Source: a virus (Duplodnaviria; Caudoviricetes). From it: a stretch of 64,000 bases of DNA. The position numbers and the translations under genes are program-made. Shown here one piece after another: positions 30,454 to 48,938 of the stretch (positions are counted from its first letter, which is position 1; every line of letters starts with the position of its first letter). The stretch covers positions 6,707 through 70,706 of the IMG/VR virus record IMGVR_UViG_3300005805_000078. One strand, given 5' to 3'. The notes under the pieces were generated by a model, which saw only the letters and a program-made list of their open reading frames with translations, was not told the origin of the DNA and ran no database searches.

Positions 30454-30454
30454 A

Positions 30455-31558
30455 ATGAGATACACTTCAGTTAAAGAATATGAGAAGACTCTTTCCGGTG
30501 GTGAACCCTCATGGAAAAATAAAGAGACTTCTTTAACTCAGGCACTAAACTGGTACAATTATCATTCAGACTATGCCGAGAGTAAGAAATTCACTATTGA
30601 GTATTTGAAAGAAATCAAAGAAAATAAAAATGTAATTTCTTTGATTGAAAAAGTACCTGATCAAAAGTTTCAAAACTTAGGTTTCGTTTGTCGAATGAAA
30701 CTTAGAGGTGCACCTTTAACTGAAAAAAACAATATGTGGATTCAAAAGTTCATTGATGAACTTAAGAAAGAAAAACAGCCGCAAGAAAAAGAAAAAATTG
30801 AATCTCCGGTAAATTTGGAAACACCTGTCATTTCAGTTCAAGAAAAGACTGCAGAAAAGTCTAAAGAATATATTTCAGAATTGGATTCATTGATTGATGA
30901 CTTTGTAATTACTAAAAATCTGAAAAAAGTAAATACCTATGAGATGATGATCAAACTTGGCATCAAGAAAGGTCATGTGTCTCATATTAAGAAATTTTTC
31001 GAAAAGAGATTAAAAGAGTATAATGAAGTTCAGAATTCAAAAGACGCGCAAGTAAAAGAAGGATATTCGAATTTCAATAAAAAACAATTGAAAGAATTAA
31101 TTTCATTGGTTGAATTGATTCTAACAGACTTGGATAGAATCGTACATAATGCTAAGGTTACACGTAAACCCAGAAAAAAGAAATCAGTATCTGTAGAGAA
31201 AGTTTTATCAAAAATTCAATACAAGAAAGCAGATGAAGACCTTAAAATTAGTTCTATTAATCCTTCTGACATTTTGGGCGGTTCTCAACTATGGGTATTT
31301 AATACCAAAACGAGAAAACTTGGATGTTATTATGCAAAAGATCAATCCGGATTCTCAATCAAAGGTACTACACTTTTAAATTTCAACGAAGAATCATCTG
31401 TGCAGAAAAATGTACGAAAACCCGATGTGATTATTCCCGATATTATCAAATCGGGTAAGATTGCAATCAAGAAATTATTTGTAGCAATTAATTCTGTCGA
31501 ACAACAGTTGACAGGCAGATTGAATGCAGATACAATTTTGCTGAAAGTGATAAAATAA
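30455..31558 (+). CDS. Conserved T4-like hypothetical protein
   Basis: ALNWYNY, LWVFNTKTRKL, LTGRLN. Confidence 0.7.
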   Translation: MRYTSVKEYEKTLSGGEPSWKNKETSLTQALNWYNYHSDYAESKKFTIEYLKEIKENKNVISLIEKVPDQKFQNLGFVCRMKLRGAPLTEKNNMWIQKFIDELKKEKQPQEKEKIESPVNLETPVISVQEKTAEKSKEYISELDSLIDDFVITKNLKKVNTYEMMIKLGIKKGHVSHIKKFFEKRLKEYNEVQNSKDAQVKEGYSNFNKKQLKELISLVELILTDLDRIVHNAKVTRKPRKKKSVSVEKVLSKIQYKKADEDLKISSINPSDILGGSQLWVFNTKTRKLGCYYAKDQSGFSIKGTTLLNFNEESSVQKNVRKPDVIIPDIIKSGKIAIKKLFVAINSVEQQLTGRLNADTILLKVIK

Positions 31559-31567
31559 GGAATTACA

Positions 31568-31999
31568 ATGGCTAAGAATATCTATGAAATTTTAGATGAA
31601 GTGAGAAATGCTGATTCTAAAAAGGACAAACTAAATGTGTTGGCTAATAATTGGAATCCAACACTTAAACTTGTATTACAGCTTGCTTATCATCCGGATA
31701 TAAAGTGGACGGTTAAAGGCCAGTATCCAGAGATGTATGTGACACCGGATACAAAACCTGGCATATCATACTCAAATCTTACGAATGAAATAAAAAGACT
31801 TTATATTTTTCGACAAGATCATCCGACTGCTCATGCCTTAACCGAAAAAAGACGTAGCGAACTTCTTTTAATCATGCTAGAATCTCTAGAACCCAGAGAA
31901 GCTGATGTTGTAATTGGAATCTTTAAGAAAGATTTGGGTGTAAAAGGGTTAAATCATAAGTTTTTGAACGATAACATTCCGGGTATTTTTACAGAGTAA
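31568..31999 (+). CDS. Conserved T4-like hypothetical protein
   Basis: LLLIMLESL.P.EA motif. Confidence 0.7.
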   Translation: MAKNIYEILDEVRNADSKKDKLNVLANNWNPTLKLVLQLAYHPDIKWTVKGQYPEMYVTPDTKPGISYSNLTNEIKRLYIFRQDHPTAHALTEKRRSELLLIMLESLEPREADVVIGIFKKDLGVKGLNHKFLNDNIPGIFTE

Positions 32000-32014
32000 A
32001 GGAGTAAATAAAAA

Positions 32015-32203
32015 GTGGCTAAATTTGTAGGTAAGTTTCGTCGTGAAGAAGATAGTTCTGACGAATATGGTTATGCAAAAAGTTTTAATAAGTCGAAGAA
32101 AAAGAAAAACGAGACAAGAGAACTACGTCGTCTAAAAAGACTTCAGACAGAAGAAGATTATAGCTACAGCGACCAGTCATTTTCGAAATATGTAAAGTAC
32201 TAA
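32015..32203 (+). CDS. Small basic hypothetical protein
   Basis: SD AAGGAG, GTG start. Confidence 0.55.
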   Translation: MAKFVGKFRREEDSSDEYGYAKSFNKSKKKKNETRELRRLKRLQTEEDYSYSDQSFSKYVKY

Positions 32204-32214
32204 GGTTCTTTTTT

Positions 32215-32550
32215 ATGATGATTCATGTGAAACTTCCGAAGTCGAAGAGGAAGCTCGGTTCTAAAAAAGAACGTGAGCAGTATGAACAGTGGCTCAAGAA
32301 ACACGAATCGAGTGCTAAGAAAGTCACTGCTACAAACTCTTACGAATGGAAACAAACCTTCACTGTACCGAAAGGTCGTGAAAAAGTTGAAATTCGTTCA
32401 CTGAACACCGGGCTTGGATATGCAAAAGCACCGGAAAAGAAAACATACACTGGAACTAACATGTTAGGCATTGGAACTCTTCATAAATCTAATGCTGTTC
32501 CTGTTTTTTCAAAAGAAGAAGCAGTTGACATGTCTAAAATGCGGAGATAA
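32215..32550 (+). CDS. Conserved T4-like hypothetical protein
   Basis: YTGT..LGIGTLHKSNAVPV...MRR. Confidence 0.75.
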   Translation: MMIHVKLPKSKRKLGSKKEREQYEQWLKKHESSAKKVTATNSYEWKQTFTVPKGREKVEIRSLNTGLGYAKAPEKKTYTGTNMLGIGTLHKSNAVPVFSKEEAVDMSKMRR

Positions 32551-32727
32551 ATTATGGGAAACGAAGAAAATTATAAGAATCTAGAGAATGTCATGCAAAA
32601 ATGGGCAAATCCTGACGGATTTCACAAAAAGGGACTTTTTTTCAACAAAAATACATGTGAAGCACTTGATTTTTCTCTCCTAAAACAACAAAATATCAAA
32701 ATTTCTGATGCCGACAACATTTTTCTC

Positions 32728-32756
32728 TTGACGAAGTGAAAAAAACACTATAAAAT
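32728..32756 (+). promoter_or_regulatory. Sigma70-type promoter
   Basis: TTGACG-N17-TAAAAT upstream of 32789. Confidence 0.55.
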
Positions 32757-32788
32757 CTTAAAAACTCACTTTTTAAGGAATTTTTACG

Positions 32789-34978
32789 ATGTTGCTCGAA
32801 GAAAAATCGATTCTTGCTCGCCTCATGGCAACCGAAAACCTCTTTATTGAAGAGAGGAACGTTTCGACTGCATATTTTGATCTAAAAAATCGTGTTCTCA
32901 CTGTTCCTATTCTAAATGGAAACTTGTCGAATCACGTTTATGATCTTTTTCTTGGGCACGAAGTCGGTCATGCGCTCGAAACGCCAATTAATGGCTATCA
33001 CAATTCAGTTTACAATAAGAAACTGAATCAAAGTATTCTTAATGTATGTGAAGACGCACGTATTGAGAAAAAGATTAAGCGTAAATTCCCTGGTATTCGC
33101 CATTCATTCAACAACGCATATAAAGAATTGATGGAGATGGATTTCTTCTCAATCAAAGACGTTAATGTGAATGAACTGAATCTGATTGACAGAATCAACC
33201 TTCATACTAAAGTTGGTATTTCTCTGAATATCCAATTTAATGAAGTTGAGCAATCTCTTTTGAATGAAGTTGAAAATACTGAAACATTCAAAGAAGTTGT
33301 TGCCGTCGCAATTAAAATTCAGAAGTACATGAGGGAGCAAAGTCGTAAAGAGAAAAACCAAGGTGAAAATATTTTCCAAAAAATGATGGATCAATTCCCG
33401 GAGAGTTTCACTCCACCGGAGAATGTTGAAACTGTTGTCGAAAAGGAAGAAGATCCTTCAGGAAACGGTGAAACTCACACTGTTAACGTTCCCTCTGGCA
33501 ATAAAAAAGAAGAATCGGCTGACGAAAATGGAATAGATGACGACAACCAAGATTTGTCTTCACTCGACTCGAAGACGCATGATGCGTTTAGAAAGAACGA
33601 AAAGAAGTTGTTTGAAACAAATCCAAAGGGCGATGTTGTATATTGTAATGTGCCAAAAATTCATGAAGATGATTTTCTTATTCCATATAAGAAAATATTG
33701 AATTTGGTTTCAAAGTATCCTAAAAGCATGAGAAGCGAATCCATTGCAATATATGAGAATCTTAAGAAAATCAATTTCAATGAATTTCAGAAGTTCAAAA
33801 ACTCGAATGATCGTATTGTCTCACATCTGGTAAAAGAGTTCGAGCTTCGTAAAAATGCGGATCAAAACTCCCGAGCCCGTGTTGCGAAGAGCGGTGATAT
33901 CAATATGTCGAGACTTCATGATTATCAGTTCACGGATGATATCTTCCGACGCATCACTCGCGTACCAAACGGTAAGTCGCATGGGCTTGTGATGTTCATT
34001 GACTGGTCTGGTTCAATGTCGAATCATATTCACTCGACAATTAAGCAATTGCTAACACTTGTATATTTTTGTCGGAAAGTGAATATACCTTTTGAAGTCT
34101 ATGCGTTCACATCCGGATTTCATGAAGAGAATTCTCCACAGAAACTTACGAAAACTAAGTTTAAAATTGGTGATCTCTATTTCTCCAATACTCATATGGC
34201 TTTGATGAATTTCTTTTCTTCAAAAATGAAGAATTCTGAGATCACTCAAATGGCATCTTTCCTCTATTCTTACAATCGGAGGGGTAGTTATATGCCAAAC
34301 GGTTTTTCTCTGAGCGGAACACCATTGAACGAATGTGTTATGGCTGCGTTTGAGGTTGTTCCAGAGTTTAAGAAGAAGAACAATCTACAAATTGTAAATA
34401 CGATTTTTCTCACTGATGGTGATGGTCATGAATGCCGCTCAATTGTGAATTATAAGGACAATAAAAACGCTAACAATATAGGTCTCAATTCTATTCTTTC
34501 GGGTAGAATTTCGAAATTGTTCTTTCGAGATGTAGAGACGAAGTGTACTGTTGAAGTTTCAAAGTATTTTGGATACACAAAAAATCATCAGACAGTCGCA
34601 CTTCTTCAACTTCTGAAGCAACGTGCGAGATGTAACATTATCTCGTTCTTTGTTTCATCGACTTCTGGATTGAAAGATAAAATTATAGAGCGGAATAATA
34701 TAGAAAATAAACTGAGCGGCATATATAGAGTCCAATCTCGCGAAGAAGAGAAGCAAATTAGTGAACTGAGAAAAAACAAATTTTACATTCTGAAAACATC
34801 TTACTATGATGAAATGTATCTGATCAAATCTGATACAATTGATATTGAAGATGAAGAATTCGAAATTGAAGCGGATAAAACAAACACACGTTCAATTGCG
34901 TCTGCATTCACTAAATATAACGAAAACAAAATGCACTCTCGCATTTTCTTGAATCGTTTCGTCAAAATGATTTCTTGA
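32789..34978 (+). CDS. Metallopeptidase-like (HExxH) plus vWA-domain protein (CobT-like partner of MoxR ATPases)
   Basis: HEVGHALET, NVCEDARIE; MIDAS DWSGS, GTPL, FLTDG. Confidence 0.85.
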   Translation: MLLEEKSILARLMATENLFIEERNVSTAYFDLKNRVLTVPILNGNLSNHVYDLFLGHEVGHALETPINGYHNSVYNKKLNQSILNVCEDARIEKKIKRKFPGIRHSFNNAYKELMEMDFFSIKDVNVNELNLIDRINLHTKVGISLNIQFNEVEQSLLNEVENTETFKEVVAVAIKIQKYMREQSRKEKNQGENIFQKMMDQFPESFTPPENVETVVEKEEDPSGNGETHTVNVPSGNKKEESADENGIDDDNQDLSSLDSKTHDAFRKNEKKLFETNPKGDVVYCNVPKIHEDDFLIPYKKILNLVSKYPKSMRSESIAIYENLKKINFNEFQKFKNSNDRIVSHLVKEFELRKNADQNSRARVAKSGDINMSRLHDYQFTDDIFRRITRVPNGKSHGLVMFIDWSGSMSNHIHSTIKQLLTLVYFCRKVNIPFEVYAFTSGFHEENSPQKLTKTKFKIGDLYFSNTHMALMNFFSSKMKNSEITQMASFLYSYNRRGSYMPNGFSLSGTPLNECVMAAFEVVPEFKKKNNLQIVNTIFLTDGDGHECRSIVNYKDNKNANNIGLNSILSGRISKLFFRDVETKCTVEVSKYFGYTKNHQTVALLQLLKQRARCNIISFFVSSTSGLKDKIIERNNIENKLSGIYRVQSREEEKQISELRKNKFYILKTSYYDEMYLIKSDTIDIEDEEFEIEADKTNTRSIASAFTKYNENKMHSRIFLNRFVKMIS

Positions 34979-35004
34979 TTCCGATTGATACGAGGTTATA
35001 AAAT

Positions 35005-35559
35005 ATGATCACTGTACAAAATGATACACTCTCAGAGAGCCTCATTGATGATATAATGAGCTGGAATAGAGATACACAGATGAATGACGTTTGGGCTACG
35101 AATCAAACAAAATGGACACACTCACTTAAGTATGCAACAACTGGTGTGATTCTTTCGCGTGTCATGCCGGATAATCTCTCTGCTCGAATATATGATGAAC
35201 TACAGTTGAGGGGTAAGATTGACTACGCGCCGTGGTCGCGCTCTTGTCTCTTTTATATCGGGCTGCCGAACTCCTGCGTTAACTGGCACGCAGACTATCG
35301 AGACTATAATGCAATGTCGATTTACTTGAATCGTACTTGGATTTCAAACTGGGGCGGCTGGTTCGGCTACACAGAGAAATACAATTTCGTCGAGGGTGAT
35401 GTAAACCCGGAGGACGGTAAGTTCATCGTACCGAGGTTCAATCTCTCTGTACTCTCTACTGAAATGGAGTGGCACTGCACAACGCCAATGAGCCCGATTG
35501 CAGAGCCGAGATATTCAATTCAACTCTTCTTCTCTAAGAAAGACTTCGTACAAAAATGA
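35005..35559 (+). CDS. 2OG-Fe(II) oxygenase
   Basis: WHAD, WGG, WHC, R.SIQ. Confidence 0.82.
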   Translation: MITVQNDTLSESLIDDIMSWNRDTQMNDVWATNQTKWTHSLKYATTGVILSRVMPDNLSARIYDELQLRGKIDYAPWSRSCLFYIGLPNSCVNWHADYRDYNAMSIYLNRTWISNWGGWFGYTEKYNFVEGDVNPEDGKFIVPRFNLSVLSTEMEWHCTTPMSPIAEPRYSIQLFFSKKDFVQK

Positions 35560-35933
35560 TTCTTGGACCGTATCTAATAAAGGTGACTCTACCGACTAAA
35601 GAGATTGTGTGGTACTGGTCACATCATCAGAAGAATTCAAAGCCGATCTCGCCAGTATTCAGAAGAAAGAAGGACGCTGAAGAGTGGCTTGAATCTTTCA
35701 TGAGAGTATATAGTGAAATGAATGAATTAATTGACCGTGCAAAGAACGGGCAATTCTACTCCGTGAAAGCAATTATAGATTCAAGTGTAATTGAACAGTA
35801 TGATTATCCGCCATTTCCGATTACAATCAATGCGGAAGACGGAACAATTTCAACAAAGATACTTGCAAAAACACTTGAAGACGCGAGAAACAAATTCACA
35901 AAATACTTTGAAGTAATTGAATGGATTGAATAA
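35556..35933 (+). CDS. Hypothetical protein
   Basis: Coupled ORF. Confidence 0.55.
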   Translation: MILGPYLIKVTLPTKEIVWYWSHHQKNSKPISPVFRRKKDAEEWLESFMRVYSEMNELIDRAKNGQFYSVKAIIDSSVIEQYDYPPFPITINAEDGTISTKILAKTLEDARNKFTKYFEVIEWIE

Positions 35934-35944
35934 GAGAGGAAACT

Positions 35945-36967
35945 ATGAAAAGCAAACTTAAATACTACATTTCAGCCTTTGTACTTGGAATATCGGGAGC
36001 AGCATACTCAGCAGACATCACGGGCGCTGGAGCAACGTTCCCGTATCCAGTCTATGCGAAGTGGGCAGAGTCATACAAGAAGCAGACTGGCGTAGGGCTT
36101 AATTACCAGAGCATTGGTAGCTCAGGCGGTATTCGACAAATCAATGCAGGCACTGTCACGTTCGGCGCTACAGATGCACCAGTGAGAGGAGAAGAGCTGG
36201 AGAGCAGAAAGCAAGTACAATTTCCAGCAATCATCGGTGGTACAGTACCCATCGTGAACCTGGACGGCTTCAAACCCGGTGAACTTCGAATCACCGGAGA
36301 AGTACTCGCTCAAATCTACCTCGGCTCAATCACTAAGTGGAACGACAGTAGACTCTCTGCACTGAATCCGGGAAAAGCGTTACCGAACCAGAACATCACA
36401 GTAGTGCATAGAGCGGATGGTTCAGGCACTACATTCAACTTCACGGACTATCTATCATCAGCATCAGAAGAATGGGCACAGAAAGTCGGGAAAAACGCAG
36501 CAGTGAAATGGCCAGCACCGAGTAGCATAGGTGGAAAGGGCAATGAAGGCGTAGCAGCAAACGTCGAACGTATCAAAGGCTCTATCGGCTACGTCGAATA
36601 TGCATATGTAAAGAAGAATAGACTCAACTTCCTGCAACTACAGAATAGAAGCGGAAAGTGGGTAAATCCAGATGACTTGACATTTGCAGCAGCAGCATCA
36701 GGCGCAAACTGGTTCTCAGTACCTGGCATGGGCATTTCAATCGTAAACCAAGCAGGCGATAACGTATGGCCAATCAGTACTGCAAGCTTCATTATCATGT
36801 ATAAGGAACCAAAAGACAAAGAACAGAGTAGAGAAGTGCTAAAGTTCTTTGACTGGGCATTCAAGAACGGTAAGAAAGACGCAGAAGAACTCGATTACGT
36901 TTCCCTTCCAGATACACTGACGAACGAAATCCGAAGCAAAGTGTGGTCACAAATCTCAAATAAATAA
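35945..36967 (+). CDS. pstS: Phosphate ABC transporter substrate-binding protein
   Basis: GAGATFP, YQSIGSSGG, RADGSGTT, GKGNEGV, IGYVE. Confidence 0.96.
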   Translation: MKSKLKYYISAFVLGISGAAYSADITGAGATFPYPVYAKWAESYKKQTGVGLNYQSIGSSGGIRQINAGTVTFGATDAPVRGEELESRKQVQFPAIIGGTVPIVNLDGFKPGELRITGEVLAQIYLGSITKWNDSRLSALNPGKALPNQNITVVHRADGSGTTFNFTDYLSSASEEWAQKVGKNAAVKWPAPSSIGGKGNEGVAANVERIKGSIGYVEYAYVKKNRLNFLQLQNRSGKWVNPDDLTFAAAASGANWFSVPGMGISIVNQAGDNVWPISTASFIIMYKEPKDKEQSREVLKFFDWAFKNGKKDAEELDYVSLPDTLTNEIRSKVWSQISNK

Positions 36968-37004
36968 ACCGTTTAAACCACAAACGGAAACGGAGAGAAA
37001 AGAC

Positions 37005-37226
37005 ATGAACCAAGTAAACCAATTCGGAGACGGTGTTAGTAAAGAAGCAAACGTATATGAGATGGACGGAGGTTTATTCCTCGTAGAATACAGCAACACA
37101 GAAGTGGGGCATTTTGTTAGAGCAGGCTTCTTCTCAACGAAAGAACTCGCCGATGCAAAAGCTGTAGAATTGCTTGAAGCAGAATGTATTACGGGAGAGA
37201 TGCTTACTGGTGATGTAGCGGCGTAA
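37005..37226 (+). CDS. Small acidic hypothetical protein
   Basis: SD GGAG, 73 aa. Confidence 0.65.
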   Translation: MNQVNQFGDGVSKEANVYEMDGGLFLVEYSNTEVGHFVRAGFFSTKELADAKAVELLEAECITGEMLTGDVAA

Positions 37227-37251
37227 AGATAAAGAAGATAGTAGAGAAAAG

Positions 37252-37281
37252 AAAAGAGGTGCATTGAGCACCTCTTTTTTT
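37252..37281 (+). terminator. Intrinsic (probably bidirectional) terminator
   Basis: AAAAGAGGTGC-ATTGA-GCACCTCTTTT followed by T-run. Confidence 0.85.
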
Positions 37282-37541
37282 ATGGGTAGTGGGTAGGAGG
37301 AAAATTCGAAAACCGTATGGGAGCTCCTGAAAAAATTTTTAGAATGGAAGGGAGTAGAAAATTCGAAATTCGTGGAGGGGGTGGAAAAATAAAAAAAAGA
37401 AAAAAAAAGTTTGGGCCATATCGCCGAATAACTCATACTCAATAAGTTTTAGTATACTGCTCGCAAAAGTTTAATATACTCTGTATAACTGCTGTATTAC
37501 TCTGTATTATAATATTGCATATTACTTACTTAGTTACTTAC

Positions 37542-37625
37542 TTACTTTGTAAATATTAGCACAAGTGTTGCGAAAATATATGCTGCAATAAATGCAGCAT
37601 TTTCGAATCGATTATCTGAAAACAT
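37542..37625 (-). CDS. 27-aa membrane peptide (absent from ORF track)
   Basis: MFSDNRFENAAFIAAYIFATLVLIFTK; leader GAAAGCGAGTATCAAA identical to that of 38024-38368. Confidence 0.55.
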   Translation of the reverse strand: MFSDNRFENAAFIAAYIFATLVLIFTK

Positions 37626-37665
37626 TTTGATACTCGCTTTCTGAATTTAGATTTGTTGATTAATT

Positions 37666-37911
37666 TCAATCAAAAATCAGATAGCATCCCGCGTTATCGA
37701 GATTATAATAATCGATGAGTGTTTCGAAGCATTCTTCGAGAGTATCACATTCATCGCCCCCGATATCGCGACCATTTTCGATATAGTGCAAATCCAAGAT
37801 TATGTCGCGATCAACAATCTTTGCGATCAATTCATCGTTGAAATACACTTTTCGAATCGTCGAATCTTCAACGATATTGAATTCGACATTGTTGAAAATG
37901 ATCTTCTTCAT
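37666..37911 (-). CDS. Small acidic protein
   Basis: Own promoter and GAAAGCGAG leader; CDTLEEC motif shared with 38414-38656. Confidence 0.75.
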   Translation of the reverse strand: MKKIIFNNVEFNIVEDSTIRKVYFNDELIAKIVDRDIILDLHYIENGRDIGGDECDTLEECFETLIDYYNLDNAGCYLIFD

Positions 37912-37994
37912 TTGTCTACTCGCTTTCGTGTGCTGTGTTGATCGAATGAAGACAGTATAGCAGTGTCGCGATATCTGTCAAGTGTTGCGTGAGA

Positions 37995-38015
37995 AGTTGA
38001 CTAGATCAGTCAACT
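37995..38015 (-). repeat. Palindromic cassette element 1 (GG/CC-free variant) plus promoter
   Basis: AGTTGACT-AGATC-AGTCAACT; minus promoter TTGACA 37976-81, N16, TATACT 37954-59. Confidence 0.9.
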
Positions 38016-38023
38016 ATTTTTGA

Positions 38024-38368
38024 TCAATACTTCGACAGTTTTTCAATAAAAGAATAAAACATATTCGAAGCATAATCTAGAATGACATTTTCACTCTCAA
38101 AATTTGAGATAAAATAATCAGAATATGCATTGAAATAATCAGAACGCGAACGACGATATTCTCGCAAGAATTCGACAGTAGAATGAATCGCGTCACTGTC
38201 GCGTTTTTCGATCATTACTTCAATATTGTTGATTTGTGAAGTATCTTCATTAAAATTGATTTGAATAATGACGCATACTTGATCATTATTTGAAACAGTA
38301 TATGTTTCAAAATCTCTGTCATAATCGATAAGAACAACATTCTCATAATCGACAAGAACAACATTCAT
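38024..38368 (-). CDS. Acidic protein lacking Gly, Pro and Trp
   Basis: 114 aa; GAAAGCGAG leader. Confidence 0.7.
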   Translation of the reverse strand: MNVVLVDYENVVLIDYDRDFETYTVSNNDQVCVIIQINFNEDTSQINNIEVMIEKRDSDAIHSTVEFLREYRRSRSDYFNAYSDYFISNFESENVILDYASNMFYSFIEKLSKY

Positions 38369-38413
38369 TTTGATACTCGCTTTCTGATTTGATGATTGAA
38401 TGATGATTATCGA

Positions 38414-38656
38414 TTAGTCGAGATATTCAAGACATTCTTCGATAGAATCGCATGTTGCAGAAGCGACAAATTCGTCATCTTCACGATTGTATTCATAATA
38501 CACTTCGAAGAGTGCATTATCGTACTTTTGATTGTCGATATCAACGAAATATTCGATGATATATGCAACACGCTTTTTGCTTCGCGAATTCGCACGAAAC
38601 ACATTATATTCATTGCAATCTGAAGATTCGTAAGTCTTGACGATACGATACTTCAT
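38414..38656 (-). CDS. Acidic protein lacking Gly, Pro and Trp
   Basis: MKYRIV...CDSIEECLEYLD; leader duplicated from 37912-37950. Confidence 0.72.
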   Translation of the reverse strand: MKYRIVKTYESSDCNEYNVFRANSRSKKRVAYIIEYFVDIDNQKYDNALFEVYYEYNREDDEFVASATCDSIEECLEYLD

Positions 38657-38739
38657 TTGTCTACTCGCTTTCGTGTGCTGTGTTGATCGAATGAATGCAT
38701 TATGTGTCAGACACACGAACGATACAAGCGATCTTTGCA

Positions 38740-38762
38740 TAGTTGACTAGATCGCTCGACTA
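38740..38762 (-). repeat. Palindromic element 2 plus promoter
   Basis: TAGTTGACT-AGATC-GCTCGACTA; TTGTAT 38722-27, N17, CATAAT 38699-704. Confidence 0.8.
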
Positions 38763-38958
38763 TGAAAAAAAGCTTGACAGAGTGTGCAGAGTGTGCTATT
38801 CGCGCGTGTGCGTGTGCGCGCGTGTTTGTGAGTCAGCGCAATTCTTGACAAGACAGGTCTGATTACCTCTTGACAAATTTTTTACCTGCGATCTAGAATG
38901 AAATAAACACGAATCATGTCTGCAAATAGTATATTCAATATTCAATCGAGTATCTCGA

Positions 38959-39041
38959 CACATACTCTCGCGAGTATCGAGACATACTATATGTCGAGTA
39001 TGTGCTGTGATACTCATATTATATACTCGCGAGAGTATGTG
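38959..39041. repeat. Perfect 19-bp inverted repeat in a GAGTAT/ATACTC-rich tract
   Basis: CACATACTCTCGCGAGTAT (38959-77) and ATACTCGCGAGAGTATGTG (39023-41). Confidence 0.85.
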
Positions 39042-39078
39042 CTGATATACTCGACAGTCTTAATTACTGTATTGATTG

Positions 39079-39167
39079 CACTTAATAGTTACCGCATCAC
39101 TTAATAGTCTCATTACTCACTTAATAGCTGCCCGGGGCACTTAATAGCTGCCCGGGGCACTTAATAG
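39079..39167. repeat. Five direct repeats CACTTAATAG at 19-20 bp period
   Basis: Copies at 39079, 39098, 39118, 39138, 39158. Confidence 0.9.
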
Positions 39168-39172
39168 TTTAT

Positions 39173-39397
39173 TTACTGACGATTCTTGACCGATTCAATC
39201 GTGGCTTCGATTTCTTTACGAATCTCGGGACTGCTATTCGCCATGCCTTGAATCATAGAACCGAGATAGCCGGCGATATATGCATATGCATTCGCTGAAT
39301 CGTAACCGCGCTTATTCTCGCAATCATTCTTCAGAGCATCGATCAGCTGGTCAACGAGAGTGGGTTCGTGCTTCATTTGGATCTCCGTATTCATCAT
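39173..39397 (-). CDS. Hypothetical protein, paralog of 45545-45739
   Basis: AY..GYL.SM..G.A motif; the start may be 39376 (GGAG SD). Confidence 0.7.
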   Translation of the reverse strand: MMNTEIQMKHEPTLVDQLIDALKNDCENKRGYDSANAYAYIAGYLGSMIQGMANSSPEIRKEIEATIESVKNRQ

Positions 39398-39446
39398 GGA
39401 GTGGACTATAGCACAGTCGGTCGGCTCGGCAAGTGTTCTCTGGCAA

Positions 39447-39469
39447 TAGTCGACCGGCTTGATCGACTA
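39447..39469 (-). repeat. Palindromic element 3 plus promoter
   Basis: TAGTCGACC-GGCTT-GATCGACTA; TTGCCG 39427-32, N16, TATAGT 39405-10. Confidence 0.85.
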
Positions 39470-39476
39470 CTGATCA

Positions 39477-39620
39477 TCAAGCCCAGCGGACGGACTCGCT
39501 TCGTGCCTCATCATCGAAGAACGCATACCAACCGCGCTTCCAATCGCCGGTTTCGCTAGCATCGAAAGCCTCGCCGAGAGCGGCTGCATTGTAGCCTTGG
39601 GTGTATTTGCTAGGTGTCAT
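39477..39620 (-). CDS. 47-aa hypothetical protein
   Basis: Downstream of promoter 39650-77. Confidence 0.6.
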   Translation of the reverse strand: MTPSKYTQGYNAAALGEAFDASETGDWKRGWYAFFDDEARSESVRWA

Positions 39621-39688
39621 TTTGTGTCCCGCGTTGATCGAATGAAGACAGTATAGCAGTGTCGGACGGTTCGTCAAGTGTCTGGCAA

Positions 39689-39711
39689 TAGTTGACCAGA
39701 TCGCTCGACTA
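39689..39711 (-). repeat. Palindromic element 4 plus promoter
   Basis: TAGTTGACC-AGATC-GCTCGACTA; TTGACG 39672-77, N16, TATACT 39650-55. Confidence 0.85.
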
Positions 39712-39843
39712 TTACCGCTTCGTCACACTCGACACCAGCTGCACAGTGGAATCATACGTGCGGTCGATAAACTGTGCGATCGGAACAATGCCGAAATGCA
39801 TGATCGCGACGCCGAGAATAAGACCGAAGAGTATCTTTGCCAT
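39712..39843 (-). CDS. 43-aa membrane protein
   Basis: MAKILFGLILGVAIMHFG. Confidence 0.6.
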   Translation of the reverse strand: MAKILFGLILGVAIMHFGIVPIAQFIDRTYDSTVQLVSSVTKR

Positions 39844-39909
39844 TTCGTTCACCGTGTTTTGATGGTTGTATCTTACAGGCGCCGGTGCGATTGGCAACCA
39901 GTTGGAAAA

Positions 39910-39932
39910 TAGTCTACCAATCCGGTCAGACA
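39910..39932. repeat. Degenerate element 5 between divergent promoters
   Basis: TAGTCTACC-AATCC-GGTCAGACA; minus TTGCCA 39892-97/TAAGAT 39870-75; plus TTGCCG 39937-42/TATAAT 39959-64. Confidence 0.75.
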
Positions 39933-39970
39933 CCGGTTGCCGGCACTAAAGCTGGTGCTATAATGGCTCC

Positions 39971-40076
39971 ATAGCACTGGTCGTCCGAGGCTCTAATCCA
40001 ACCCTGCGCGTCAAACGTGCCTCGGCTCCGCCTGCGCGGGTTCAAATTCTTGATCGCTCCGCTCAAGTATTTTTTT
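39971..40076 (+). ncRNA. Candidate small structured RNA (possible pseudoknot)
   Basis: Consensus TGn-TATAAT promoter, no ORF, two interleaved stems, terminal hairpin plus T7. Confidence 0.45.
40046..40070 (+). repeat. Palindromic element 6 plus promoter
   Basis: ATTCTTGATC-GCTCC-GCTCAAGTAT then T-run; TTGCCA 40084-89, N16, TACAGT 40106-11. Confidence 0.7.
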
Positions 40077-40132
40077 GCGCTGGTTGCCATCCACCACGGT
40101 ATCGTTACAGTCTAAGCACGTTTCAACAAAAG

Positions 40133-40330
40133 GTGATATTCGATATGCGTTATTCGGCACTGCGTGTTGCACAAGATATTGCATTTAAACACGGCGTCGA
40201 TAATATATTCGCTGAAGTATATACTATGCGCCGAGAGTATGACGATATATTCGATTCTGTCGAGTATACTATGGAGTATCTCGGTCTGTACGATGACTGG
40301 TATAATACGTGGGTGAATCAAGTGGAATAA
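40133..40330 (+). CDS. Small acidic hypothetical protein
   Basis: ORF after promoter 40084. Confidence 0.55.
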   Translation: MIFDMRYSALRVAQDIAFKHGVDNIFAEVYTMRREYDDIFDSVEYTMEYLGLYDDWYNTWVNQVE

Positions 40331-40512
40331 TATGCGTGTGTAGTGTGTGTGGGGGAAAATAGAATCCTAGGAATTGGCTTAGTCCCACCACACCATATAT
40401 AATCGCGATACACCGCGATACGACCGCATATTATGCTACAATATCGCATTTCATCGAAATTAAACACTACACAATGTCATATCCGCGACATACTCCGCGA
40501 CAATGCGACACC

Positions 40513-40563
40513 ATACACTACCCATAGTGTACTATGGAATATCAGACACTATGGGTAGTGTAT
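40513..40563. repeat. Perfect 18-bp inverted repeat with 15-nt loop
   Basis: ATACACTACCCATAGTGT / ACACTATGGGTAGTGTAT. Confidence 0.88.
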
Positions 40564-40579
40564 ACTTCCTTCAATCATC

Positions 40580-41017
40580 ATGAAAATGGCAAATGAAATG
40601 ACAAAGGCTGTATTTTATATTCAATATGACGACGGTTCTTACACTCAGACCGTATTCGAATCGGCGATTATGGCTAAACGTGCTTATAATCGTTATGCAA
40701 AAAGATTGGAACATAATGTAAAAGAATATGGTTGGGAAGTATTATCAGAACCTATGACATTATCTCATCGTATACGAGAAAAGTTGAGACAATTGGAGTT
40801 AAATAATATGAATGAACGAATTAAACAACTTGAGATTCAATCTGTTTTCTATAATGAAGACACCCAATTGTGGGAGTTTGATCGAGAGAAATTCGCTGAA
40901 TTGTTGATTCAGGAATGTGCTAATGTTTGTTTATCTCAGCGTAATCCTTCTAATCTAAACTATAAACCGTCCGAAAAATTTGCTCAAGCATTGAAACAAC
41001 ATTTTGGAGTTAAATGA
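40580..41017 (+). CDS. Hypothetical protein in frame with an MNERI-family domain (internal start 40808)
   Basis: GGAG-N9-ATG at 40808; EKFAELLIQEC...QHFGVK. Confidence 0.65.
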   Translation: MKMANEMTKAVFYIQYDDGSYTQTVFESAIMAKRAYNRYAKRLEHNVKEYGWEVLSEPMTLSHRIREKLRQLELNNMNERIKQLEIQSVFYNEDTQLWEFDREKFAELLIQECANVCLSQRNPSNLNYKPSEKFAQALKQHFGVK

Positions 41018-41018
41018 T

Positions 41019-41234
41019 ATGAACGAAAGAATTAAAGAACTAATGATTGAATCTGGTTCTACTGGCACTTATCAAGTTTGGTTTACTCGAAACGAAGTCC
41101 ATAAACTCGCCGAGTTACTAATTAAAGAATGTATCAAAGCATCTATGGTATCGATTCTTGATAATAATATCGGTGATCGTGAAGATTGTGTTATTGTTGG
41201 TTCTGATATTTCTGATCATTTTGGAATGGAGTGA
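41019..41234 (+). CDS. MNERI-family protein
   Basis: MNERIKEL...KLAELLIKEC...DHFGME. Confidence 0.75.
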   Translation: MNERIKELMIESGSTGTYQVWFTRNEVHKLAELLIKECIKASMVSILDNNIGDREDCVIVGSDISDHFGME

Positions 41235-41242
41235 AATAATAT

Positions 41243-41458
41243 ATGGAAATCAAAAAGGTTTACAAAACAAGTAAGGGTCTTTTTTGGACTAAAGAAGAGG
41301 CGGAGAAGAAAAAGAATCGGGCGAAAGAAAAGGAATTCTATAACACTGAATATCAATATGAAAAAGTGCGTGAAGTATATGTTCTCGTTACTTGGAAAGA
41401 CCAAGACTACGGTATCTACGGTATGGCTTTTGAATTAAACCCTGTGGAGATTCAATAA
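41243..41458 (+). CDS. Hypothetical protein
   Basis: SD GGAG. Confidence 0.6.
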   Translation: MEIKKVYKTSKGLFWTKEEAEKKKNRAKEKEFYNTEYQYEKVREVYVLVTWKDQDYGIYGMAFELNPVEIQ

Positions 41459-41643
41459 TGAACGATGATAAAATGGCTCAATATTTCTCTTATCTTGATA
41501 TTCTTCGAGAATCTGGCGTTACGAATATGTTCGGTGCTGTGCCGTATCTTATGCACCAATTCGATATTCCAAAGGCAGAGGCGCGGAATGTTTTGCTTGC
41601 GTGGATGGACTTCAAAGAAAAGGCAAGTATGGCGCAGAAATGA
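41458..41643 (+). CDS. Small conserved phage protein
   Basis: YLDILRESGVTNMFGAVPYL motif. Confidence 0.75.
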   Translation: MNDDKMAQYFSYLDILRESGVTNMFGAVPYLMHQFDIPKAEARNVLLAWMDFKEKASMAQK

Positions 41644-41663
41644 CTGACCGGATCGGTCAACTA
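41642..41663 (+). repeat. Palindromic element 7 plus promoter
   Basis: GACTGACC-GGATC-GGTCAACTA; TTGCCT 41678-83, N16, TATAGT 41700-05. Confidence 0.88.
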
Positions 41664-41741
41664 TTTTACCTAGGTGCTTGCCTCGTTTTCCTACTCTGCT
41701 ATAGTCCACTCCATCGAAAGACACATGAGAGGTGACAGAAG

Positions 41742-42233
41742 ATGATTCCGAAGTTTGAAACGCAGACCGAAATGATCGCTTACGTTCATTCGCTCACCGA
41801 TGCTGATCGTATTCGTATCGTCGCCGAGCATGGCATCGCACCGAAGAATCGCTCAGAAGCATCCGTTCTCGCCGATTACATTGTGCAAGGCGTTTCGAAG
41901 GGTCTGACCGGCGCGGCTCTCACCGCGTATGCTGAAGAACGGACGAAGCGCCTGATCGCGATTATGCCTCATCTCGGTCGCGCACAGCCTGACGAAGAGC
42001 CGATCATTGTCGAGGTCGCACCTGTCGCACCTGTCGCGGTTCCTGCTGCACCTAAGGCACCTCGCGTCGCCAAGACCAAGTATCCTGACGGTACGATTGT
42101 CGCCCGCCCTGATCGCGGCGGCTTCGAAGGCTGGTACGCTGGCAAGGCTGAAGCCTTCCGCCCGACTGTGGAGAAGGTCGCTTCGTTCTTTGCGAAAAAG
42201 TATCCCGAAGTCAAGACTGTGGTTCTTGCCTGA
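41742..42233 (+). CDS. Two-domain protein, paralog of 47251-47874
   Basis: KFETQ...ADYIVQG...; KTKYPDG...GGFEGWYAG.AEAFRPTVEKV. Confidence 0.8.
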   Translation: MIPKFETQTEMIAYVHSLTDADRIRIVAEHGIAPKNRSEASVLADYIVQGVSKGLTGAALTAYAEERTKRLIAIMPHLGRAQPDEEPIIVEVAPVAPVAVPAAPKAPRVAKTKYPDGTIVARPDRGGFEGWYAGKAEAFRPTVEKVASFFAKKYPEVKTVVLA

Positions 42234-42249
42234 CCGGATCGGTCAACAA
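42229..42249 (+). repeat. Palindromic element 8 plus promoter
   Basis: TGACC-GGATC-GGTCA containing the upstream TGA stop; TGC-TATAAT downstream. Confidence 0.88.
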
Positions 42250-42310
42250 TCGCGCCAAAGTCCAAAACCACTGCTATAATCCAGACCGTTCTAAGATAAG
42301 AGGTGGAAAA

Positions 42311-42505
42311 ATGACTGACATGGAAAAGGCTTTTGATGTTCTCTCCGAAGCTGGAATGAATCCAACGTGGGTAGGCGGTGATTACATTATCGCAAACGTC
42401 ACCGGAATCAGGCTCTTGCCAGGCAAAAAGACCGAGGCATACACCGAAACCGAGATTGTTCGGAGTCTCGCCTCTGCACTCTGGTTGGTCGGAATTTGCG
42501 AGTAA
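42311..42505 (+). CDS. Hypothetical protein
   Basis: SD GAGGTGG. Confidence 0.6.
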   Translation: MTDMEKAFDVLSEAGMNPTWVGGDYIIANVTGIRLLPGKKTEAYTETEIVRSLASALWLVGICE

Positions 42506-42508
42506 ACG

Positions 42509-42533
42509 ATTGTCGACCAAATCGGTCAACAAT
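42509..42533 (+). repeat. Palindromic element 9 plus promoter
   Basis: ATTGTCGACC-AAATC-GGTCAACAAT; TTGCCA-N17-TATAGT (42556-61). Confidence 0.9.
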
Positions 42534-42568
42534 TGCCAAAGTCCAAAACCACTGCTATAGTCCACTCC

Positions 42569-42796
42569 ATGATGACGCTGAAAACCGAAACGAAGCAAAA
42601 CTGGTTCAATACACTGAATGCGGCTCTCGAATCTGAGGGCTTGCTTGATACGTGGGATTGTTCCTGGGCACCGATCAACTATGGCAAGACCCGCACGTAC
42701 CGCGTCGATGACGGTTCTCGGTACGGTCGCCAAGTCTCCATCTATCGTGATGAAATGGGACGATATGAACGTCCGGTCCACTATTCTCGGGGTTGA
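42569..42796 (+). CDS. Small conserved phage protein, possibly leaderless
   Basis: SIYRDEMGRYERPVHY motif; ATG 7 nt after the -10 box. Confidence 0.65.
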   Translation: MMTLKTETKQNWFNTLNAALESEGLLDTWDCSWAPINYGKTRTYRVDDGSRYGRQVSIYRDEMGRYERPVHYSRG

Positions 42797-43002
42797 ATAT
42801 GTCCACTCAACATATTGTTGGTATTGTCGGAGGGTCGAATTTTCGCGACCAATATACTATCGATAAAATAAGATTCGATAAAGAAACCGATGCGTTCCAA
42901 TTCATGCGGAACTATAATCGTTCTTTCGATTCTGGTAAATCGCATTATGTTCGCGCAGAGTATCTCGGTGAAATCGACACGGATACTGGCGACTACGTTT
43001 AA
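42793..43002 (+). CDS. Hypothetical protein
   Basis: Coupled ORF. Confidence 0.55.
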   Translation: MNMSTQHIVGIVGGSNFRDQYTIDKIRFDKETDAFQFMRNYNRSFDSGKSHYVRAEYLGEIDTDTGDYV

Positions 43003-43035
43003 TAACCGTAACCATAAACAAGGAAGGTAAACAAA

Positions 43036-43350
43036 ATGTTTTTCACTTTTCGACAAAACAATTCATTCGGCGTATTTGATGTGGACGATAATGTCGATCA
43101 CTTCGTGATTATCGAAGCAGAGTCATCCGGCGAAGCCGATGATATCGGCGAGCATATCGGTATCTATTTCGATGGTGTCGAAAAAGGTATTGATTGTGAA
43201 TGCTGCGGTGATAGGTGGTATTGAAACTATGGACGTGGTACAGAAAAGCCTGAAATATATGGTAAGAGCCCGTCCGAGCATTCTTATGAATATATTATTC
43301 ACTATAAGGATGGCAGAATCGAACGTGATGGAGTAATCAAGAATGTCTAA
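43036..43350 (+). pseudogene. DUF7296-like gene with an in-frame TGA at 43222-43224 (nonsense mutation, readthrough or sequence error)
   Basis: F.QNNS.G...CECCGDRWY*NYGRGTEKPEIYG...IHYKDGR; extended frame ends overlapping the next ATG (43343). Confidence 0.65.
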
Positions 43351-43609
43351 TGAAACTATACAAAATGAATTGTATGAATACATTTTGAGTAAGGGTGTAT
43401 TCGATGCGCCGTACGGTGTATTACTCTCGGATCATGTTTCGAAAAAGGGCTTTAAATCAAAAGCTATTACCTTTGGGCGCGCACGGACACTCGACGCGAC
43501 AATTGAAATATATAATCGGAAGTATTTCATTCTGAAGGCTTCTCGATTTAATCAGAATAAAGTCCTGTTCTCAGTAGCGGATCTTAAGGCTGAAATTGAT
43601 ACTCTATAG
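43343..43609 (+). CDS. Hypothetical protein
   Basis: SD GGAG; stop lies inside element 10. Confidence 0.65.
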   Translation: MSNETIQNELYEYILSKGVFDAPYGVLLSDHVSKKGFKSKAITFGRARTLDATIEIYNRKYFILKASRFNQNKVLFSVADLKAEIDTL

Positions 43610-43629
43610 TTGACCGGAGAAGTCAACAA
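43607..43629 (+). repeat. Palindromic element 10 plus promoter
   Basis: TAGTTGACC-GGAGA-AGTCAACAA; TTGCCA 43642-47, N16, TAGAAT 43664-69. Confidence 0.85.
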
Positions 43630-43702
43630 TCCGAATGCTGGTTGCCAGTCTTACGGAAACCTGTAGAATCCATTCTGTTGACGGTTGATAAGGAGTTCGG
43701 AA

Positions 43703-43960
43703 ATGACTGATCGATATGTCCAGACGGTTGAAATGCGAAGGTGCGTTCTCGGGCTTGTGGAGCATAGCGTTACTGTTCGCCGCATCGATAATCGGTACCA
43801 TGTCCGCGTTTACGTTGACGGTCTACTGAATCAGGAAGCATATTGCACCGATAAGTCCGACATTGGTTACACTGCACGTTCCCTCCTGCGCTGGGAAGAT
43901 AAGTGTGGCAATATCTCAGAATTCGCATCCGCCGCACGGAAGCGCCTGTTCCAAGAGTAA
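43703..43960 (+). CDS. Hypothetical protein
   Basis: SD AAGGAG. Confidence 0.7.
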   Translation: MTDRYVQTVEMRRCVLGLVEHSVTVRRIDNRYHVRVYVDGLLNQEAYCTDKSDIGYTARSLLRWEDKCGNISEFASAARKRLFQE

Positions 43961-44145
43961 GACTAAGGATTCCCGACTAATGACGTGGTATGACCAGATT
44001 TTCGCCCATGCTGCGTGGACCGAATTCGCAAGAATCTTCCCGCGTGAGGCTCAGATTTACAGGCTATTGCCTGTGCACCGTGGACCCTATCGTTCGATGG
44101 TCGAGGACTTTTTCAAGGCTTTCGAAGGACGCTAGGCGCGAGAGT

Positions 44146-44167
44146 GTCTGACCGATCCGGTCAACTA
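44146..44167 (+). repeat. Palindromic element 11 plus promoter
   Basis: GTCTGACC-GATCC-GGTCAACTA; TTGCCA 44180-85, N16, TAGAAT 44202-07. Confidence 0.88.
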
Positions 44168-44242
44168 TTCTTGGCGTGGTTGCCAGCCCTACCAAAATCT
44201 ATAGAATCCATTCTGTTGAGTCGATAAACGAAGGGAAAAACG

Positions 44243-44980
44243 ATGTTCGAATTTTCTTCTGAGTGGGATGCGGATGCTTCGCGGACTCTCGGTTCGCTGG
44301 TCAAGTATAATGCCGGCTTGTTTAAGTCGGAAAAGCAAGCATCGTTCATTCTGAAGACATTCCCGCGTGATTATTCGACTAAGTGGACGCAAGAAACCGC
44401 GGATTTTGCACGCAAGAATTTCGGCATCGAATTGCCGGAGGGCACCGTAATGTGCATGATCTCCGCCTATGTGCGATGGGTCGATTACGGCGCTAAGTCC
44501 ATTCGCCCAGTATCGTGGATTTACGTCCTTGATACCCGAGGCGTGGTTGCACAATACAAACTGGGTTATGTCGGCGATATGCGTTCCGGCACTGCACCTG
44601 ATCCGTCGCGGACCCAATGCTTGTTTACCCGTGGTGGTGATGTTGCACCTATCGTCGATAAGGCTGCCGCCGCACCTGTGGTTTCCGAATCTAATTCGAC
44701 GCATATCGGTACTGTCGGCTCGCGTGTCACGATCAAGGCGACGATTGTAATGGTGAAAGAATTCGAAGGACAAAAGTTTCACTATTATGATTCTGGTCGC
44801 CGGACTCTGACTCGCCTTGTCTCCGAGGGTAATGATATTGTGTATTTCGGCTTTCTCGGTGATAAGGGCGCTGAAATTGAAATGAAATGCACTATCAAGG
44901 AGCATTCTGAGTATAACGGTGCAAAACAAACCGTTATCTCCCGCCCGAAGGTTCTTAATCAAGCTGTTACTGTGGAGTAA
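44243..44980 (+). CDS. Protein with C-terminal OB-fold-like domain
   Basis: STHIGTVGSRVTI...KCTIKEHSEYNGAKQTVISRPK. Confidence 0.7.
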   Translation: MFEFSSEWDADASRTLGSLVKYNAGLFKSEKQASFILKTFPRDYSTKWTQETADFARKNFGIELPEGTVMCMISAYVRWVDYGAKSIRPVSWIYVLDTRGVVAQYKLGYVGDMRSGTAPDPSRTQCLFTRGGDVAPIVDKAAAAPVVSESNSTHIGTVGSRVTIKATIVMVKEFEGQKFHYYDSGRRTLTRLVSEGNDIVYFGFLGDKGAEIEMKCTIKEHSEYNGAKQTVISRPKVLNQAVTVE

Positions 44981-44985
44981 ATAAA

Positions 44986-45171
44986 ATGATTGCATATCTG
45001 ATCGTGAATGTTATTTTCTGCGGACTTCTTTCTATTATGTGGAAAAGTAGTGATTGGGCGAATACACTTATCAAATTGTTTCTAATCATTATGACAGTAT
45101 GGAGCGGATTTCATCTATTCAATCAATTGGGTTTCATTGTCGCAGCGCCTGAAGGTATGCGCTGGTTTTAA
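44986..45171 (+). CDS. Small two-TM membrane protein
   Basis: Hydrophobic; SD GGAG. Confidence 0.6.
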   Translation: MIAYLIVNVIFCGLLSIMWKSSDWANTLIKLFLIIMTVWSGFHLFNQLGFIVAAPEGMRWF

Positions 45172-45195
45172 ATCAAAGAAAGTTGGGGTAATATT

Positions 45196-45447: not shown

Positions 45448-45468
45448 TTGACCGGCGTGGTCAACTAT
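45444..45468 (+). repeat. Palindromic element 12 plus promoter
   Basis: ATAGTTGACC-GGCGT-GGTCAACTAT (perfect 10 bp); TTGCCA 45480-85, N16, TAGGAT 45502-07. Confidence 0.92.
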
Positions 45469-48926: not shown

Positions 48927-48938
48927 TTAGGAAGTATA

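Follow-up and report, generated by a model that had tools for sequence, protein, structure and literature searches.

The DNA analysed here is a window of 64,000 nucleotides (nt) from an uncultured virus of the Caudoviricetes (positions 6,707 to 70,706 of the IMG/VR record IMGVR_UViG_3300005805_000078), and our subject is an island at positions 37425-39091 in which the dinucleotides GG and CC are nearly absent. The island holds 11 such sites (1 GG and 10 CC), where about 107 are expected. By direct count not one occurs in the 1061 bp from 37795 to 38855, for which the local base composition predicts about 65. The sequence-only reading that drew attention to this region had reported a GG/CC-free core of 1060 bp, and the count bears it out. 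On balance, we favour an explanation by selection, under which these early transcription units offer no target to a factor reading the CC:GG step and can thus remain intact or be expressed at a time when this is denied to other genes.

Extent and maintenance of the GG/CC ban

Two further gaps without GG or CC are found in the island, at 37425-37687 (263 bp) and 38886-39091 (206 bp). Outside the island, the longest such gap in the whole 70,706-bp contig measures 163 bp, and none of the 300-bp windows elsewhere in the contig has an observed/expected ratio of GG/CC below 0.26. Noncoding parts of the island contain 3 sites (54 expected) and coding parts 8 (53 expected). All coding exceptions lie in one gene, which encodes a protein of 81 amino acids (aa), as CC runs at 37688-89, 37757-60, 37772 and 37794. 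The remaining three sites are located at 38856, 38866 and 38885.

Plain AT-richness is ruled out as the cause by the enrichment of CG and GC steps (observed/expected 1.85 for CpG and 1.27 for GpC), as had been argued from the window alone. Amino acid composition alone is excluded as well, since noncoding DNA and synonymous sites are purged too. GA/TC steps are enriched, and GAA/TTC occurs at 0.93 of the genome rate. Avoidance of restriction palindromes is contradicted by the enrichment of TCGA (3.1-fold), CGCG (4.6-fold), GATC (2-fold) and TCGCGA (12-fold) in comparison to the rest of the genome. Avoidance of Rho, for which few YC steps and no excess of C over G would be expected on the message strand, does not fit either: UC occurs 135 times on this strand (observed/expected 1.5), and C (17.4%) is about as frequent as G (17.9%). 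On the message of the leftward unit, CC is missing over about 1275 nt. Runs of A8, T9 and C5 are present in the island. A second compositional signature was observed for other palindromes: TGCA is likewise enriched in 37425-39091, ACGT does not occur, where the genome rate predicts about 3.7, and only one or two occurrences each were counted for GTAC, CATG and AGCT.

Relatives (L001-L024) were found by searches with three island proteins, which matched only very close families. Orthologous islands with the same property are present in at least 20 independent assemblies from JGI, ENA, Logan and GenBank. The sequence-only reading had named two findings that would speak against it, an assembly or homopolymer-collapse artefact and a normal use of GG/CC in orthologous islands, and we encountered neither. 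An artefact is ruled out because many independent assemblies agree, and the A/T runs and the G5 run are intact.

Over the island, L007-L016 form a lineage with about 90.5% identity to the window, in which the GG/CC-free gaps measure 1053, 302 and 264 bp. The window differs from L011 by 103 substitutions (61 transitions and 42 transversions). Random placement of substitutions with the same spectrum would raise the number of GG/CC from 11 to about 27, whereas L011 has 9, a value that was reached in none of 5000 simulations (P<0.001). The comparison of L011 with L017 over the cassette of a 106-aa protein revealed 60 substitutions in 361 bp and no GG/CC on either side, where simulations expect 4-11 (probability of zero <0.01). 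Furthermore, 22-24% of the possible synonymous changes would create GG or CC, and none of the 25 synonymous differences did (P=0.0013). The ban acts on nucleotides and is kept across substantial divergence, independently of any single assembly. The proposal of the sequence-only reading that selection acts on the DNA itself is thereby supported from three sides: noncoding DNA, synonymous sites and diverged orthologues. Since diverged relatives keep the ban, something in infected cells probably reads this two-letter step.

Genes, control elements and movement of the cassettes

The source contig (70,706 bp) is estimated to be 43% complete. It encodes a T4-type DNA polymerase with 54% identity to those of cyanomyoviruses, a DnaB-like helicase and UvsX, together with ribonucleotide reductase, ThyX, CobS and PstS. 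The virus is an uncultured freshwater phage of the T4 type. Despite this cyanophage-like gene set, PstS (35945-36967) shows 74% protein and 67% DNA identity to genes of Burkholderiales. Therefore a freshwater member of the Burkholderiales is the best guess for the host, probably rather than a cyanobacterium. The contig also carries a large operon of glycosyltransferases and nucleotidyltransferases with unassigned target.

The features of the island and its borders are listed in the following (dN/dS, ratio of nonsynonymous to synonymous divergence; PeSL-type, palindrome followed by a sigma-70-type promoter).

37282-37424, no strand: left boundary, rich in G runs (C-rich on the message), with a direct repeat spaced 57 bp; conserved in L001, L017 and L022
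37425-39091, no strand: GG/CC-poor island
37542-37625, minus strand: gene of a 27-aa hydrophobic peptide, last cistron of the unit; kept in L001, L017, L022 and L023
37666-37911, minus strand: gene of an 81-aa acidic protein of the IGGD-C-x5-EEC family; dN/dS 0.23
37954-37981, minus strand: sigma-70-type promoter TTGACA-16-TATACT, 11 of 12 matches; GG/CC-free counterpart of the TTGCCA type of other cassettes
37995-38017, no strand: PeSL-type palindrome with arms GACT/AGTC in place of GACC/GGTC
38024-38368, minus strand: gene of a 114-aa protein without Gly, Pro or Trp; corresponds to the 106-aa family plus a 24-nt tandem duplication
38414-38656, minus strand: gene of an 80-aa acidic protein without Gly, Pro or Trp; distant paralogue of the 81-aa protein
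38664-38672, minus strand: split Shine-Dalgarno (SD) sequence GAAAGCGAG; further copies at 37633, 37919 and 38376 (four in all)
38741-38763, no strand: second PeSL-type palindrome, GG/CC-free
38801-38830, no strand: alternating purine-pyrimidine CG/TG tract, scored also as terminator-like hairpin
38845-38899, plus strand: rightward promoter TTGACA-18-TAGAAT, preceded upstream by another TTGACA; kept in L001 and L023
38946-39054, no strand: inverted repeat of 32 nt (91% complementary), downstream of the rightward promoter; folds into a long hairpin without GG/CC
39078-39172, no strand: right boundary with five iteron-like CACTTAATAG repeats exactly 20 bp apart and C3G4 runs

Within a leftward early region, the island occupies the promoter-distal end, with four open reading frames (ORFs) on the minus strand that encode products of 80, 114, 81 and 27 aa. 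Values of dN/dS between 0.14 and 0.23 identify them as real genes whose proteins are under purifying selection. Gly, Pro and Trp, which make up 9.5% of the residues in the large genes of the phage, are missing from the 114-aa and 80-aa products, as the sequence-only reading had stated for two ORFs, and from the 27-aa product too. Resampling of codons with the usage of the phage itself predicts 6.7 GG/CC for the 114-aa gene and 4.9 for the 80-aa gene, and both have none. The 81-aa gene contains every coding exception of the island, including a conserved Gly-Gly written as a G5 run, and shares the motif C-x5-EEC with the 80-aa protein. At the 5' end of the 114-aa gene, an exact tandem duplication of 24 nt (38319-38366) adds 8 residues in comparison to the 106-aa orthologues of all relatives.

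Searches beyond the close relatives delivered little. A profile search of the 106-aa family against 1.84 billion protein representatives returned only its own cluster and two giant repetitive proteins, and a search of the ESM Atlas gave no usable match. The island had no blastn match among 50,697 phage records, scans of viral contigs with two proteins of the island region and the leader pattern found none, and Rfam gave only chance matches below threshold on the island.

PeSL-type elements divide the island into units, and the same type of element partitions the neighbouring 15 kb. By a strict pattern we count 12 copies of the palindrome, each followed by a TTGCCA/TTGACA ... TAGAAT-like promoter; the sequence-only reading had counted 21. 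Its description of the changed palindrome arms and SD sequence of the island holds. The ribosome-binding site of the island genes is spelled AGAAAG-C-GAG, whereas ordinary genes of the phage use GGAG or GAGG. With one bulged-out C, the split SD can pair with a 16S rRNA tail ending in CCUCCUUUCU. The tail with this ending, GGATCACCTCCTTTCT, was found in 34 of 61 genomes from the putative host family, with copy numbers like those of rRNA. The GG is broken in this way, and yet the site appears to retain its SD function.

A noncoding control region of 435 bp follows on the right of the island genes and contains the alternating CG/TG tract, the rightward promoter, which is a strong one, and the 32-nt inverted repeat. 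All three noncoding exceptions of the island are AGGT/ACCT words situated on the rightward promoter and kept in relatives, and this triple is probably a protein-binding site. Folding of the 32-nt inverted repeat is well above that of shuffled sequences, with z of -6.4 (plus strand) and -5.5 (minus strand), and its role could be that of a small RNA, of a cruciform or of an array for protein binding. In relatives, the repeat has extra GAGTAT/ATACTC units. Both flanks of the island are repeat blocks rich in GG and CC. On the right, the iteron-like repeats together with the promoter and the inverted repeat resemble an origin or an operator array, and two of the five CACTTAATAG repeats are exact 20-mers with CTGCCCGGGG. 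The left block has a GC skew of +0.39 and A8/A9 runs, and adjoins a bidirectional terminator hairpin at 37249-37281. The ends of six metagenome contigs fall at 37330-37360.

The comparison of relatives has shown that freedom from GG/CC goes with single cassettes wherever they lie and is independent of the locus. A more distant lineage (L017-L021), whose flanking core genes are saturated at synonymous sites (synonymous divergence, dS, at least 1.5), has the 106-aa cassette only, the counterpart of the 114-aa gene. Here, the GG/CC-free stretch measures 510 bp and reaches from just upstream of the -35 box into the following 27-aa gene, while its neighbours, including the palindrome upstream, use GG and CC normally. 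Between L022 (235-555) and L017 (845-1165) the dS of this cassette is 0.56, against at least 1.5 for the flanking core genes (peptidase, ribonucleotide reductase small subunit and others), which suggests a recent horizontal exchange that left the ban intact, or else an additional constraint on its nucleotides. The 81-aa gene is replaced in L022 by a 91-aa paralogue, which has the normal place of that gene and is purged save for the conserved Gly-Gly, which is again a G5 run. Four gene arrangements are found in the relatives, with breakpoints either at the palindrome, promoter and leader or at the 27-aa gene. In L017, the 106-aa cassette stands between two copies of the 5' part of the 27-aa gene (633-740 and 1195-1280), and the upstream one is joined to the C-terminal codons of a different early gene. 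The duplication is a scar of the recombination by which the cassette was inserted, and reveals the 27-aa gene as a second handle for shuffling besides the palindrome. In L023, a single long ORF at 1068-1540 is an apparent fusion of 80-aa-type and 81-aa-type paralogues, and a paralogue at about 1920-2204 contains Pro, Gly, Trp and 14 GG/CC.

From these observations, the island is a set of mobile PeSL-type early gene cassettes, as indicated by the T4 type of the phage, the structure of the elements and the bounds of insertions and deletions.

The independence from the locus bears on a positional requirement, by which either the first-entering DNA, as in the pre-early (first-step-transfer) region of T5 with its two-step DNA entry from a fixed end, or a physical or origin function of the locus would forbid GG and CC. 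The repeat blocks on both sides, the strong inverted repeat and the promoters are origin-like, and many metagenome contigs end at the island flanks. In Autographiviridae, the local absence of a motif in the first-injected region decides the escape from restriction (PMC12455610). However, the DNA polymerase, UvsX and helicase point to a T4-like phage. Phages of this type package their DNA by headful. The island is internal to the 70.7-kb contig, the contigs of relatives read through it, and the contig breaks coincide with repeats, as is usual in assembly. Moreover, relatives tolerate 14-16 GG/CC within the island, and L017-L021 hold one purged cassette of 510 bp amid normal DNA. We therefore regard a positional requirement as very improbable. 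Two options of the sequence-only reading, first-entering DNA and a physical requirement of the locus, are not supported, on the same evidence: a T4-like phage, an internal island, a lone cassette in a distant relative and GG/CC-normal genes tolerated inside.

Hardly credible, in our judgement, is a mutational origin, in which CC was removed from both strands by a cytosine deaminase specific for CC or by some other context-specific mutator. An exhaustive change of CC to CT on both strands would automatically give GACT/AGTC from GACC/GGTC, and TC and GA steps are somewhat enriched. Yet the boundaries are sharp and follow the cassettes, and both the GG/CC-rich flanks and the inserted genes with normal GG/CC are conserved beside purged DNA. 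The change from TTGCCA to TTGACA is a transversion, the substitution spectrum of window and L011 is an ordinary one in which C-to-T does not dominate, CpG is enriched, and the ORFs are intact and under purifying selection.

Candidate readers of the CC:GG step

In the explanation that we favour, each transcription unit would be kept free of CC:GG from its promoter to the 3' untranslated region (UTR) by purifying selection on nucleotides. A factor that needs CC or GG would thereby be unable to bind, mark or cut these genes during the first minutes of infection, and small acidic products, candidate counter-defence or takeover proteins, would be made while ordinary genes cannot be. A leftover site would then be costly, but to a finite degree, as a few are retained where function requires it, namely at the Gly-Gly and the AGGT/ACCT triple. 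We infer both that the selective agent is a sequence reader and the functions of the proteins. As the ban is symmetric for GG and CC, the simplest single cause is a reader of the duplex step CC:GG, and action on duplex DNA seems somewhat more probable to us than action on RNA. As to its nature, a dinucleotide-specific activity of phage or host that marks or nicks DNA is possible but unlikely, a CC-dependent CRISPR system or a reader at the RNA level is in either case distinctly unlikely, and most of the remaining probability goes to something not yet described.

One form of marking would be an escape from the own mark: phage or host marks the DNA at CC/GG, and the first genes, which are read from marked parental DNA by unmodified host RNA polymerase, lack the target. 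On this view, a switch that depends on the mark would be formed by the three AGGT/ACCT words at the rightward promoter. This fits a purge that spans whole transcription units on both strands, from upstream of the -35 box to the 3' UTR. Ordinary cassette promoters have CC in the -35 box (TTGCCA), those of the island have none, and the sole noncoding exceptions sit exactly on one promoter. In its favour we also count the glycosyltransferase and nucleotidyltransferase operon on the contig, and DNA markers of two- or three-letter words exist, for example GpC- and CCD-specific methyltransferases. Nevertheless we consider this form unlikely. The contig fragment yielded no DNA methyltransferase, no hydroxymethylase and no enzyme of base exchange, hypermodifications of phage DNA are not known to block host RNA polymerase, and other early cassettes would have to be read from marked DNA too, yet they are not purged. 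For the second option of the sequence-only reading, an escape from a CC/GG-directed modification or nuclease of the phage itself, the evidence points neither way, and such an enzyme is not seen in the available 43% of the genome.

CRISPR systems offer another reader. The cassettes would lack the protospacer adjacent motif (PAM) of type I-F, CC, or the GG of Cas9-type systems, so that no spacer can silence or cut them; perhaps they encode CRISPR inhibitors shared between phages. CC:GG on either strand is precisely what a reader of a CC PAM sees, and the cassette moves between diverged phages. In a sample of 151 genomes from the family of the best PstS donor, taken as the putative host family, type I-F Csy3 was detected in 16 and Cas1 in 53 (including the unpublished genome G148), so that this clade does possess a reader of CC. 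On the other hand, type I-C Csd1 is as common (18 of 151). The PAM of type I-C is TTC, and this word is not avoided in the island, as seen above for GAA/TTC. Thousands of CC and GG elsewhere in the genome leave the phage targetable, and the conserved Gly-Gly, written as a G5 run, maximises the number of PAMs. Among 38 Cas-bearing genomes, a small sample, no spacer-like match to positions 30000-49999 of the window was found, only homology to PstS. Taken together, PAM-free cassettes are rather improbable. The first option of the sequence-only reading was first-entering DNA that is invisible to CC/GG PAMs and to restriction sites containing CC/GG. A weaker form of it, by which the genes as such are invisible to a CC/GG reader, may hold, but the unavoided type I-C PAM and the enrichment of CG-containing palindromic restriction sites speak against it.

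The ban may also serve the transcripts. The messages and the rightward RNA would be kept free of GG/CC against a ribonuclease (RNase) or an RNA-binding factor, be it a RegB-like enzyme cutting SD sequences or an RNase that is injected or belongs to a defence system. The lack of CC on the message strand of the leftward unit, an SD that avoids GGAG and nevertheless pairs with 16S rRNA, and a purge that stops near the putative end of the transcript agree with such an immunity. However, two words would have to be banned on one RNA strand, where one step of duplex DNA covers both. The roughly 200 bp between the divergent promoters are depleted too (3 sites), and RegB is missing from the fragment. 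Immunity at the RNA level is thus, like PAM-free cassettes, a rather improbable explanation.

At this point, the observations that weigh against a CC:GG reader and protected early genes have to be named. A dCMP hydroxymethylase/ThyA, a C5-methyltransferase and RegB were not found in the contig, although absence of an enzyme from a contig that is 43% complete does not show its absence from the phage, and none of the annotated contig genes encodes a DNA-modifying enzyme with a defined motif. The enrichment of CpG (1.85) and of TCGA and CGCG (3- to 4.6-fold) is not accounted for by simple avoidance. Inside their islands, L001 and L003 have a 63-aa gene with 16 GG/CC in 192 bp behind a promoter and leader of the island type (the L001 gene has no copy elsewhere in our contig), and the L023 paralogue described above, a further member of the 81-aa family, has its 14 GG/CC inside the island as well. 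Other PeSL-type early cassettes of the same phage use GG and CC normally, and the supposed reader must therefore matter for the island genes only. For the island ORFs there was no Pfam match over the cut-off, and an AlphaFold model (pLDDT 67) had no fold match in the PDB by Foldseek at E<=0.001. The role of the proteins is a guess, since no relatives or fold matches are detectable. Compared to known anti-CRISPR and anti-restriction DNA-mimic inhibitors there is no homology or fold match, and only the small size and acidity fit.

A wider claim, which we put forward tentatively and hold to be rather doubtful, is that infected cells contain an undescribed reader of CC:GG in DNA, or of GG/CC in RNA, which disables genes, and that unrelated phages independently evolved reader-proof early cassettes without Gly, Pro and Trp. 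If this is true, such cassettes would mark the first-line counter-measures of a phage and lead to the reader.

Relation to known systems

Full-text literature searching found no report of a GG/CC-free phage region, in agreement with the statement of the sequence-only reading that it knew of no described equivalent. We regard the island as a new, extreme and local form of motif avoidance. The ban on a dinucleotide is far stronger and more local than any published case, to the extent that it removes three amino acids and forces a bulged SD, and it implies a reader of two-letter specificity that acts on few early genes. Whether the reader is a nuclease, an enzyme that marks DNA, a CRISPR effector or a factor acting on RNA, its discovery would bring a new player into the conflict of phage and host or into the regulation of phage genes. 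Since the signature is trivially computed, a scan for it could single out first-line early genes or counter-defence genes of phages that are uncultured.

A similar logic is known from messages that lack the target of an RNase. ACA-less mRNAs survive MazF, and RegB of T4 cuts GGAG in early SD sequences. By analogy, genes needed during a shut-off would lack the word of the shut-off enzyme, and the SD of the island avoids GGAG. Unlike in these systems, GG and CC are banned on both strands and also in promoter DNA, and no such RNase was found in the contig fragment.

The depletion of CRISPR PAMs in phage genomes has been described (PMC4246573), and CC is depleted genome-wide in Pseudomonas phages targeted by type I-F systems (PMC12174588). 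With PAM and restriction-site avoidance the island shares that a short DNA word is scarce, presumably by selection against a reader of DNA, and CC:GG is the PAM of type I-F. The published avoidance is mild and genome-wide, whereas here it is nearly total and confined to cassettes of 0.5-1.9 kb, with the rest of the genome spared. Three amino acids are forfeited, and the palindromic restriction sites TCGA, CGCG and GATC are enriched. As in the first-injected region of Autographiviridae, the local absence of a word in an early region rich in anti-defence genes can suffice for escape (PMC12455610). That case concerns one longer motif of a Type I system and DNA entering slowly from a fixed end, while the island is internal, belongs to a T4-like phage and has a property linked to cassettes.

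In structure, the island goes with the PeSL (promoter-early stem-loop) cassettes described for phages of the T4 type (Arbiol et al. 2010, PMC2839356; Comeau et al. 2014, PMC4122927). In both, a stem-loop immediately precedes a sigma-70-type early promoter, the element recurs many times between the small ORFs of a hyperplastic region, and genes are gained, lost and replaced between relatives within bounds set by the elements. Two differences stand against this likeness. Recombination here makes use of another handle as well, namely the 5' part of the 27-aa gene. And no compositional rule appears in the abstracts of PMC2839356 and PMC4122927, whereas in the phage described here a subset of the cassettes, regulatory parts included, is free of GG and CC.

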